Assembly: GCF_965641715.1 (NCBI RefSeq)
Contig: NZ_OZ282453.1
Strand: one strand, 5' to 3'
DNA: 64,000 bases
Source: Escherichia coli
Lineage (GTDB): Bacteria; Pseudomonadota; Gammaproteobacteria; Enterobacterales; Enterobacteriaceae
Position numbers: made by a program. This document shows positions 45,001 to 48,000 of this stretch, piece by piece; the first letter of the stretch is position 1; each line of letters begins with the position of its first letter.

Positions 45001-48000
45001 TGCTCTTTGGCATGACGCGGCATCTAATGGATAACGTAGCCGGGCAATGTGGCGCAACATGGCAATTCGTGGACGGTCAGCGCCAGATGGTGGCGAATAA
45101 CGAATATGTTCACGAAGCGATTGTGCTCAACAGTGCTACCGGGCTTATTGGCATGCCGCAGCAGACCATCGGTAACGGCGTAAACGTCCGTGCGCTCATT
45201 AATCCGAACATCCGGGTTAACGGGCTCATTCAGCTGGATCAGGCTTCTGTATATCGCACCGCGTTGTCGAACAACGATATCGCTATGGCTGGTGGGCAGA
45301 TCACCGACCAGAACACGGACGGAAATATTACGCTCAGCGGCACCACATCACAGCCTGCCAGCATCGCAACGGATGGCGTTTATATTGTGCGCGGGATTAT
45401 GTACACTGGCGACACAAGGGGCCAGGTGTGGTACATGGATATGATGTGCGAAGCGCGTGGCGCGGCGGATCTGTATACGCAATCGGCTTTGCAAAGGGGA
45501 TGAGCAATGAGGGGTATTATTTTTCTGTTAGCTGTCTTTTCTGCGTGCAGCGCGTGGGCGGATGGCTTCACGGTTAAATGCGGTGGCTACACTATGGTTG
45601 CAAACCAGGGCGAGTTATCGACAATCAACGGTGAAAGAGTTACCTCTCAAAAAATCACCGAACTGGGTACCAATGGTTTGAAAGTAGACATGGGGATTAT
45701 GCCTGCCAAAGACGGTAACAACTACGGCTTTGAATACATTCGTCGCCCTGGTACCGAAACGCGATTCCTGAATGTGCAACTGCTGCAGAACAGCATGGAC
45801 GCGCCGAAAATCATCGGGTCTTTCCCGTGTAAAAAGGTTAATCAGTAAAGCTATAATCCATTTCTGACATCAATTTCAGGCAGTTGATTCTGGGGTTAAG
45901 GATTATTATGGCTACACCAGCTAAAGCATCCAGTAACTATGTTATCCAGTTCGGGGCGATGCTTGAAGAAAATGCTTCGATAGATGAGTTCACTTATCGT
46001 TACGTTTTACGCAATTATTCATCCAGCACTGAAGGCAACGATGTTAGCGCGGTTGGTTTTGCTTATGCTTTAAATGGTGAAGATGATCTAGCCTATGAAC
46101 ATTTTCATAAGCATCTGAAAATGGGCAACATCACTATTGCAAAGAATTTCGCTGCTTTCCTTTTCAAACGACATCACTACCGCCAGTTACATGAAATTAT
46201 TTATCAACTTGCTGATGCGTTTGGCGGGAAAATGTTGACTATGCTTGCTGCTGCGGAATCTTATCGGGTTGGTGACCTGGCGGCAATCCAGAAATACATG
46301 GAATGGCACTGTCGTTTACTGTCAGAAAACGATGACAAGTACGGAGCTGAAGCCTATATGCGTGAGCTTATCGATGGTGTTAAAGGATGTTACGAGGCAA
46401 AAGTTTGTACACCTGAGCAGTTTAGATTGCTTGGGGACATCACTCATTCGATCCTTGAAGAACGTAAACTTATTCCCGGTAGCTTGGGAATTTTCAGCTC
46501 TATGGGCGGTGATTATCTCGTGCAAGTGGAGAAAGCTACTCCGGAAGATATCGTTTTGATGAATTTTGATTTGGCTGAAAGGATATGTTCTGAGTCAAGG
46601 TTAGACGACTGTGAAATGACTGCTCGTTTCTCGGTTTTAAGGGAGTCCCATACGAAGGAAACTTATGACTATTCAGAGTTTTGATTTTTTGCGTTCAAGT
46701 GAACATTGTTTAACTCTGGACGAAGAAGTTGGTTATCGTAATGCCGTATCGCGAGCCTACTATGCTATGTTTCATCGTGCTGGCGAGGCTCTGAAGCATG
46801 TCCCCTCTGTAGAACATAATCACCATGCTAATTTAATCAACTACATGCAAGGTAGGATGGGCACACCTAAGGAAGAAATACCTCCTGCAAGATTAAAAAT
46901 ACTTGCATACGATCTCCGCCAAATGAGACAAGCGCGGAATGAAGCCGACTATCGCTTATCTGACTCCAAGATAAATGCTGACGTTGCCAAGGAATCATTA
47001 TTAACCGCGCAGCATTTTTTTAAACGGATTTCATAAAAAGTCACTATTTACCACGAACCCGCCATCCGGCGGGTTTTTTGCTTTCTGGAGCCTACTAAAT
47101 GGCAGTATCTGACCAGACCCGCAGCGGCGACCTTGCCGAAACATTCAAATCTGAACGGGAAACAACAAAGAACCAGATCCGTGTCGCCTTGCCTGGCATT
47201 ATTCAGTCATTCGATCCTGATGCGGTGACGGCAGTTGTGCAGCCTGCTATCCGTTCGGTTGAAAAGGATAATGACGGCAACCGCATTACCAAAAATTACC
47301 CATTGCTGGTGGATGTGCCAGTGGTATTCCCACGCGGCGGAGGATGTACGCTAACGTTCCCAGCTAAAGCCGGTGATGAATGTTTGGTGATTTTTGCCGA
47401 TCGTTGTATTGATTTCTGGTGGCAGAGTGGCGGGATACAGGAGCCGGTCGATGACAGAATGCATGATTTATCGGATGCGTTTTGTATTGTCGGTCCCCAG
47501 TCGCAGGCAAGGAAGATTAGCGGTATTAATACCAGTGCCACACAGTTGCGTAGTGACGACGGCAGCACCTATTTTGAGCTTAATCCTGATACCAGGAAAA
47601 TTAAAATTGTCGCTCCGGGTGGTCTTGATGTGGTTGCCCCTCTGGCTGATTTTTCTGAGAAAGTAACCATTCATGGCCTGTTAACCTGGATGGGGGGCAT
47701 GGTGGGGTCTGTTGTTTCTGGTGTGGCTTCAAAAATCACTGGTGCTGTTGAGTTTTTGGGTAGCGTGAAGGCTAACGGCAAGCTAATCGATGATACGCAC
47801 ACTCATGGTGGTGTTCAGCGCGGTGGAAGCAATACCGACGGAGTAAACTGATGCGATACAGACGTGAAGACGCCGATGGCGATTACACCTTTGGCAGCGG
47901 TGATGATACCTGGCTGATTAACTCACCGGAGGCCGTGGCGCAGGCGGTAAAAACGCGATTCGAATTGTGGTATGGGCAATGGTTTCTAGACACCACCGAA

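Follow-up and report, generated by a model that had tools for sequence, protein, structure and literature searches.

Toxin-antitoxin and anti-phage systems repeatedly employ HEPN nucleases as their effectors. In the AF0298-like HEPN-T subgroup and in AbiV, the motif arginine is kept and the motif histidine is typically absent, with an aspartate instead in several cases (PMC3710099), and a second conserved histidine, located in an insert between helices 2 and 3, has been proposed for an alternative active site (Anantharaman et al., 2013; PMC3710099). Some HEPN proteins are combined with repeat proteins, as in LA2681, where the HEPN is fused to tetratricopeptide repeats (TPR) or shares an operon with them, and AbiU2, which is found in an operon with a Sel1-repeat protein (PMC3710099, Table 1). 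The prophage HEPN effectors HepS (from Gifsy-1) and Tha are constitutively present and stay inactive until released by a phage structural or tail protein (PMC13043305). The P2 gpA-gpQ interval is a phage defence hotspot (Rousset et al., 2022). Here, we describe a HEPN gene and its upstream partner gene in a SEN34-like myovirus prophage, contained in a 64,000-nucleotide stretch of the Escherichia coli contig NZ_OZ282453.1 (assembly GCF_965641715.1). This whole stretch is referred to as the window and provides the coordinates used below.

Our main finding, held with high confidence, is that the two genes form a conserved partner-HEPN cargo module without a minimal nucleotidyltransferase (MNT), the protein that classically accompanies this type of HEPN. 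The module occupies a slot between the baseplate hub and spike genes of the prophage, and is exchanged there as a unit. The slot and its surroundings are made up of the following features:

44442-45503, plus strand: baseplate hub gene, the conserved left neighbour (phrog_196 baseplate hub, E=2.4e-88)
45507-45848, plus strand: gene for a 113-aa secreted protein (phrog_3443, E=1.6e-47), with the left breakpoint in its last codons
45843-47054, plus strand: variable two-gene cassette of low GC content (0.40-0.46), delimited by the homology breakpoints
45852-45857, plus strand: candidate -10 element, a perfect TATAAT, inside the cassette and upstream of the 258-aa gene
45908-46684, plus strand: gene for the 258-aa partner protein, from an ATG start (the mechanical open reading frame begins at a TTG at 45884)
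46665-46684, plus strand: 20-nt overlap of the partner and HEPN genes, from the coordinates of the reading frames
46665-47036, plus strand: gene for the 123-aa HEPN protein, of the AF0298/UPF0332 "HEPN-T" type
47055-47082, plus strand: terminator-like hairpin with T tract, the right slot boundary, just 5´ of the ribosome-binding site (RBS) of the spike gene
47099-47851, plus strand: spike (gpV-like) gene, the conserved right neighbour (TIGR01644 phage_P2_V, E=2.8e-8; "membrane-puncturing spike protein" in RefSeq)

The limits of the cassette were obtained by aligning 44400-48300 with phages vB_EcoM-689R2 and SEN34 and with E. coli FXCREC004 and 2018-10-2CC, which carry different cargo. Homology to the loci compared (L001, L003, L006 and L007) breaks at about 45842, in the final codons of the 113-aa gene, and is back at 47056, where the terminator stem starts. 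The variable insert is therefore the two-gene pair only, at about 45843-47054. An earlier, sequence-only reading of this region had proposed a three-gene insert that ends in its own terminator. The three reading frames it named are real, as is the 20-nt overlap of the last two, and all are matched by RefSeq genes in E. coli TL20, whose prophage is 100% identical over 45400-47200 and where the last gene is annotated as "HEPN domain-containing protein". However, only two of the three are variable. All relatives examined have the 113-aa gene, which belongs to the conserved side of the slot, because homology to prophages with other cargo reaches about 45842. The hairpin, too, is genuine (47055-47076; a 9-bp stem with 6 GC pairs, a loop of 4 and a T-rich tail) and is the sole terminator-like site within 44400-47400, but it is not the cassette's own. 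Its stem, AACCCGCC-loop-GGCGGGTTTTTTGC, and the spike RBS are common to every cargo type examined except that of phage YP3, with variable loops, and the terminator is thus the fixed right edge of the slot and part of the conserved flank. The GC content is 0.40-0.46 across approximately 45650-47000, against about 0.52-0.57 for the baseplate genes on the left side and 0.48-0.54 for those on the right. An Rfam scan of 45000-47500 returned sub-threshold chance matches only. As a separate observation, the 36-nt terminator sequence (47055-47090) has, by itself, a 100% match outside annotated features in E. coli JNE23-001 (H100), and the hairpin may occur outside the SEN34-like prophage family.

The hub-spike junction is found in 272 of 5426 complete E. 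coli genomes (~5%), and the exact cargo described here in two of the 5426. When the 272 genomes are taken together with three phages, the slot holds at least eight cargo types, and the carriers of other cargo include close relatives in which the hub gene is 97-98% identical. The pair is accordingly moron cargo in that it is present, absent or replaced at a fixed position (breakpoints 45842 and 47056) between near-identical phages. This agrees with the earlier suggestion of variable prophage cargo, and from the comparison of syntenic prophages the pair is not a conserved tail component. Including the pair at 45908-47036, at least five alleles of the module occupy the slot. Four further ones encode partner and HEPN proteins of 256 and 131 aa (L007, also in enteropathogenic E. 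coli E2348/69), 257 and 131 aa (L023), 243 and 142 aa (L024), and 243 and 140 aa (L025), and are 26-32% identical in the partner and 30-43% identical in the HEPN to the pair in the window. The L023 HEPN gene (E. coli BY68, NZ_CP090212.1; positions 1605-2000 of the locus) is intact, encodes 131 aa with the motif ARNEADYDL, overlaps the upstream partner gene by 14 nt and is unannotated in RefSeq, so that family counts based on annotation are too low.

The remaining cargo types include a 190-aa protein with a YafO-family toxin, a protein with two transmembrane helices and a weak PycTM match together with a small acidic protein, DUF2335, DUF4282 and others. In the second of these (L027, 770-1476; L028, 765-1493), the larger protein has 176-184 aa, predicted transmembrane helices and a weak match to the Pycsar PycTM effector model (E=2.6e-4), and the acidic protein downstream of it has 56-59 aa. 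Yersinia phage YP3 (L002, PV092592.1; 2950-4043) has a lone gene of the partner family, encoding 266 aa, and lacks the HEPN gene and the terminator. A direct repeat of ~120 bp, containing the RBS and start region that serve the spike gene, borders this orphan on either side. The gene could be an orphan antitoxin, an anti-defence gene or a recombination remnant. Phage vB_EcoM-689R2 (L001, 2939-3451) carries a 170-aa cargo protein in which IRNNLFHGG fits the canonical Rx4H HEPN motif. It had no Pfam or PADLOC matches and we leave it as a hint that a different, solo HEPN may use the same slot.

The 123-aa protein contains the motifs VSRAYYAMFHRAGEAL and RQARNEADYR, from which a HEPN had been suspected. 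The structure search bears this out, and the profile matches are consistent with it but weak. Pfam HEPN (PF05168) matches the protein over its full length (E=1.8e-3), and in the family as a whole E<=0.1 is reached by 10 of 14 members and <=1e-3 by three (best 9.8e-5). Searched against PDB, a profile of the HEPN family found 2hsb (AF0298, "UPF0332"; E=1.9e-4), 9xbd (E=1.2e-3) and 9xbc (~1e-3), and in the alignments the SRAYYAMF and R-x3-D-Y segments line up. The AlphaFold model (predicted local distance difference test, pLDDT, 93.8) has five helices arranged as the all-alpha up-and-down bundle of the HEPN fold, and its top Foldseek matches in PDB are all HEPN, namely 2hsb and 1ufb (probability 1.00), sacsin 3o10, 2q00 and 8xeh_B, among them the HEPN of a HEPN-MNT complex. 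Relatives of the protein carry the JGI label "UPF0332 family". What was not borne out is a canonical RNase signature: the motif reads R91-N-E-A-D95-Y96 rather than Rx4-6H. Among 13 sequences that are 26-86% identical, E21, R25, R30, Y32, Y33, H37, H54, R91, D95 and Y96 are invariant, and in the model H54 marks the start of an extra helix (53-62) between helices 21-42 and 74-96. As the pattern of R91, D95 and H54 matches the description by Anantharaman et al., sequence and model together place the protein in the AF0298/UPF0332 "HEPN-T" subgroup. The PDB entries 9xbd and 9xbc are 125-131-aa "HEPN domain-containing proteins" with AMSRAYYAMF and RNRSDY, one of them reading RNRSDF, apparently a Tyr-to-Phe variant. 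A paper on these entries was not found in our literature search, but the motif tyrosine of this HEPN subgroup seems to be under study elsewhere.

The 258-aa partner had no match among Pfam, NCBIfam and PADLOC families and only a function-less label, phrog_17809, and the one hint from NCBIfam (PilW, E=0.066) is a generic TPR match. An exhaustive profile search gathered 86 clusters at 50% identity, nearly all of 240-290 aa, from gamma- and betaproteobacteria, including E. coli CFT073 and E2348/69. The AlphaFold model built on a 75-sequence alignment (pLDDT 94.6) consists of ten helices (residues 7-186), stacked as helix-turn-helix repeats in the manner of TPR proteins, and then a beta-beta-alpha-beta unit (189-243). 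In AFDB50, it matches only full-length proteins named "uncharacterized" or "tetratricopeptide repeat", from Proteobacteria wherever the organism is named. TPR matches, all weak, occur in 10 of 75 family members, and Pfam nucleotidyltransferase matches in none of the 75. From sequence and model, we thus read the partner as a TPR-like helical domain with a small C-terminal alpha/beta domain, and not as an MNT. The sequence-only reading had correctly seen no MNT motif in the upstream gene; the motif is missing because the partner is a different kind of protein with a different fold. Nor does the locus contain an adjacent MNT with GSX10DXD. A degenerate MNT centred on "GGD" (200-202) in the C-terminal domain was considered and rejected, as this domain has no DxD, a different strand order and no nucleotidyltransferase matches.

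The association of the two genes extends well beyond this slot. When a single genome of each species was scanned for the HEPN motif RN[AT][IV][SA]R[AS]YY, 31 loci were returned, and in 27 of them an open reading frame of the partner family lies directly upstream, abutting or overlapping the HEPN start. In 25 of the 31, an upstream frame of 243-290 aa matches the partner profile, its end falling anywhere from 56 nt ahead of the start of the HEPN match to 17 nt beyond it, and within ~15 nt of it in all but one. Two further loci, L053 and L058, have short partners of 82 and 109 aa that cover only profile positions ~160-250, that is, the last helix and the alpha/beta unit, and the HEPN gene still follows downstream. 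A third short partner (L060, 110 aa, the same profile positions) also precedes a HEPN gene and is chromosomal, beside flavorubredoxin genes. In L059, from Acidobacteria, the gene upstream of a HEPN bearing the same motif encodes a classical MNT (GSRARGDWREESDID); this is the only distant locus with a recognisable classical partner. The 335-aa upstream frame of L050 matches the partner marginally (E=0.02-0.06), L057 has a 230-aa upstream frame without a partner match, and L056 has no upstream frame. The layout is that of a type II toxin-antitoxin operon, with the partner upstream in 27 of 27 pairs, an overlap in 22 of the 27 (20 nt in the window) and a small downstream gene, and of the two proteins it is the HEPN that shows the higher conservation in 98% of 351 comparisons. 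We infer that the HEPN lineage seen here derives from MNT-associated HEPNs, and the short partners suggest that the smallest unit to interact with the HEPN is the C-terminal domain, the TPR domain then probably being an accessory module for sensing.

Two individual loci deserve mention. In L063 (2010-2803), the partner is split into frames of 156 and 100 aa, the first matching the N-terminal and the second the C-terminal portion of the profile. An intact HEPN gene lies downstream, and the split partner is either a pseudogene left by a frameshift or a protein that naturally comes in two pieces. The other, L034, is a 7.5-kb contig of a metagenome-assembled genome labelled Sporosarcina psychrophila (DYWT01000267.1) and carries a 271-aa partner gene of the length of the CFT073-type protein, the 90%-identity cluster of which includes a UniRef entry assigned to the same species. 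Contamination of the assembly seems more likely here than a Firmicutes homologue.

Several other mobile settings hold family members as well. In a P2-like Vibrio phage, a member lies between gpA and the ogr/portal genes, which places it in the P2 gpA-gpQ defence hotspot (Rousset et al., 2022). A Mu-like element carries one behind mor, and a Klebsiella phage has one 5´ of its tape-measure gene. In many E. coli, a member adjoins a prophage integrase, in a cluster that includes the CFT073 protein c3205. A tblastn search of 50,697 phage records found the HEPN in two records only and the partner in one, so the family resides mostly in prophages rather than in isolated phages, and a profile scan of viral contigs added close relatives only. 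Such a spread of contexts marks the family as mobile accessory cargo of conflict-associated hotspots and not as a tail component.

We propose, with confidence divided about equally for and against, that the pair is a toxin-antitoxin-like and probably abortive-infection module that moves through a hypervariable slot of SEN34-like myovirus prophages. In this model, a HEPN dimer would be the effector, an RNase using R91 and the alternative histidine H54 together with D95/Y96 and residues of helix 2. The C-terminal alpha/beta domain of the partner would bind the HEPN and hold it inactive, in the place taken by the MNT in classical HEPN-MNT systems. The TPR domain at the N-terminus would be an addition that senses by binding protein. 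A promoter of the cassette would drive both genes in the lysogen, with transcription ended by the slot terminator and with the overlap predicted to couple their translation. Infection by a competing phage might then disturb the complex, through binding to the TPR domain or through loss of the partner, and the freed HEPN would abort the infection by its RNase activity, as in abortive infection of the toxin-antitoxin type. The parts of this model do not stand equally firm. A toxic HEPN that its partner neutralises appears moderately probable on sequence grounds, somewhat better than an even chance. That the module defends against phages we hold with lower confidence, at or slightly short of even.

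A number of observations weigh against the model. The HEPN profile matches are weak (E ~1e-3 to 1e-4), and in PADLOC-DB v2.0.0 the 123-aa protein matches HEPN_IX only (E=0.054). The canonical histidine of Rx4-6H is found 5-7 residues past R91 in none of the 13 aligned members, and among HEPN-MNT toxins only those of class I bear the motif required for RNase activity (PMC11586414), although, given the alternative residues, an RNase activity of the 123-aa protein is plausible. The proposed contact between the C-terminal domain and the HEPN is suggested by domain architecture. The candidate -10 element of the cassette is perfect but its -35 is weak (3/6). A consensus promoter scan found no plus-strand promoter in the region and did not call the TATAAT at 45852-45857, which may nevertheless be the cassette's own promoter element; at the corresponding position, the L007 allele reads TTGACT-18-TAAAAT. 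The pair is also kept in the same slot across phages with hub proteins only 62-65% identical, and such persistence may mean a benefit to the phage other than defence. Finally, our literature search turned up nothing published on the partner-HEPN family, be it on toxicity, on neutralisation or on defence against phages.

A more far-reaching version of the model, which we put forward tentatively and consider unlikely on balance, is that the pair represents an unrecognised anti-phage family. A new alpha/beta domain would have replaced the MNT as inhibitor of an AF0298-type HEPN, the TPR domain would sense a phage protein, the divergent slot alleles would record an arms race among temperate phages, and orphan partners such as the 266-aa protein of YP3 would be phage-borne anti-defence decoys.

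The module may instead be a plain addiction module, in which a HEPN toxin and a labile TPR antitoxin stabilise the prophage or form a selfish cassette and no phage is sensed. The order and overlap of the genes, resembling type II toxin-antitoxin systems, and the small, better conserved downstream gene would fit such a module, as would the occupation of the same slot by a pair with a YafO-family toxin and the presence of short-partner copies on the chromosome outside prophages, e.g., L060. However, a TPR domain of 180 residues would be needless for neutralisation when partners of 82-110 aa exist, and a conflict between phages better fits both the many highly divergent alleles that share a single slot and the location of a family member in the P2 gpA-gpQ interval. 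We therefore find this explanation improbable in its pure form, while noting that many toxin-antitoxin systems also defend against phages and that the two readings overlap. A lower probability still attaches to a catalytically inactive HEPN that serves as an adaptor and binds nucleotides, RNA or proteins, in which case the pair would be a phage regulatory or chaperone-like accessory. This would be at odds with the invariance, down to ~26% identity, of a charged and polar set that includes R91 and H54, residues that are the expected signature of the alternative active site (Anantharaman et al.; PMC3710099), and with AbiV, which has the same alternative histidine and belongs to an abortive-infection family.

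The sequence-only reading had left two options, a divergent HEPN/MNT pair or a new HEPN-associated module, and of these it is the second that our analysis sustains. In the first, a type VII system, the 258-aa protein would be a cryptic nucleotidyltransferase that AMPylates Y96 of the HEPN. The HEPN does fall in the nucleotidyltransferase-associated HEPN-T clade, the distant relative L059 has a true MNT, the motif tyrosine is conserved and 9xbc is apparently a Tyr-to-Phe variant of the related 9xbd. Nonetheless, the searches contradict this explanation, with no nucleotidyltransferase matches and no DxD in the partner, and we give it very little credence. The RX4HXY motif with an AMP-accepting tyrosine (as defined in PMC11586414) is also absent, the HEPN reading RxxxDY with the tyrosine at the position of the histidine. 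The idea of a conserved component of tail or baseplate assembly, invited by the location in the baseplate operon and by the same slot in the diverged phages L018-L022, can be dismissed as next to impossible, given that the pair is absent from 689R2, YP3, SEN34 and 270 of 272 E. coli prophages despite near-identical baseplate genes, that the family also occurs outside tail modules and that the cassette is low in GC.

The 113-aa protein, which the sequence-only reading had counted in the moron, is set apart from the pair by its conservation. It has an N-terminal signal peptide, and in 14 of 14 related loci, even where the hub is only 62-65% identical, the hub gene is followed by a homologue that likewise has a signal peptide and in which two cysteines are conserved. 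C25 and C108 are invariant and the conserved core comprises INGE..TSQK, NNYGFEY and FLNVQLLQNSMDAPK. The N-terminal third is exchanged among near-identical prophages, and L005 combines the same cargo with a 64%-identical version of the protein. A lipoprotein reading, suggested by the fit of Cys14 to a lipobox, was rejected because Cys14 is not conserved among the homologues, which share an Ala-X-Ala-type signal-peptidase I site. Pfam, PADLOC and NCBIfam gave no matches, phrog_3443 is a function-less label, and the suggestion of a Cor-like exclusion factor accordingly found no homology support in the first three of these databases. A secreted protein fixed within a baseplate operon is an odd placement. 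Elsewhere in the prophage, a 1337-bp insertion (41595-42931) distinguishes the window from the otherwise identical prophage of TL20, and the window therefore does not derive from TL20. It carries an IS186/IS4-family transposase reading frame (41765-42883, minus strand), has an apparent target duplication of ~13 bp and splits the tape-measure/lytic transglycosylase gene into 40212-41654 and 42930-43550. The prophage is thus probably unable to make tails, its cargo genes being intact.

The control and activity of the non-canonical, MNT-associated PF05168/UPF0332 branch of HEPN proteins are poorly understood, and the pair is a defined and widespread case in which the MNT is replaced by a partner with an apparent two-domain logic, of which natural minimal versions occur. 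The hub-spike junction of SEN34-like prophages is a cargo hotspot rich in toxin-like genes that could be mined for further systems. Should the pair be confirmed as a defence system, the allelic series in the slot would be a model for the diversification of sensor specificity. Our literature search found no published description of the hub-spike slot as a hotspot, of the partner family or of its pairing with HEPN, and the family accessions searched for are absent from the DefensePredictor supplements. The HEPN system DS-28 of DefensePredictor was set apart from the pair, as its 163-aa HEPN-family nuclease is encoded first in the locus and thus differs in size and gene order.

Compared with described systems, the 123-aa protein is closest in sequence and fold to the AF0298/UPF0332 HEPN-T proteins (PF05168; 2hsb, 9xbd/9xbc), with which it shares the SRAYY motif of helix 2, R-x3-D-Y without the canonical histidine and the alternative histidine between helices 2 and 3, although its identity to 2hsb is only ~21%. 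These proteins are typically standalone, MNT-fused or MNT-adjacent, whereas here the partner is of the TPR plus alpha/beta type. HepT/MntA (type VII) resembles the pair in its small HEPN encoded downstream of a translationally coupled partner and in belonging to the nucleotidyltransferase-associated HEPN branch. It differs in that the present locus has neither an MNT nor RX4HXY, and neutralisation would presumably occur by binding and not by AMPylation. AbiV shares the missing motif histidine, the alternative histidine at the same position and a link to abortive infection (PMC3710099). A PADLOC search of the cassette proteins, however, gave no AbiV match. AbiV is a single gene and is not known to have a TPR partner.

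The release of the cassette HEPN in our working model follows the same logic as that of HepS and Tha. HepS is a single, self-inhibiting tetramer with RX4-6H, in contrast to the separate partner and non-canonical motif found here, and the likeness drawn is one of working model. LA2681 and AbiU2 likewise combine a HEPN with a repeat protein of the TPR class, but keep the canonical Rx4-6H and belong to other clades, and their partners were compared by description only. As for the site, the P2 gpA-gpQ and P4 psu-int hotspots (Rousset et al., 2022), and morons in general, show the same fixed flanks, terminator and swapped toxin-like cargo, the difference being that the slot described here is embedded in the baseplate operon of a SEN34-like myovirus. 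The parts of the system, HEPN-T, TPR and prophage moron slot, are of known classes, and by its sequence the pair would be a variant of these rather than something categorically new.

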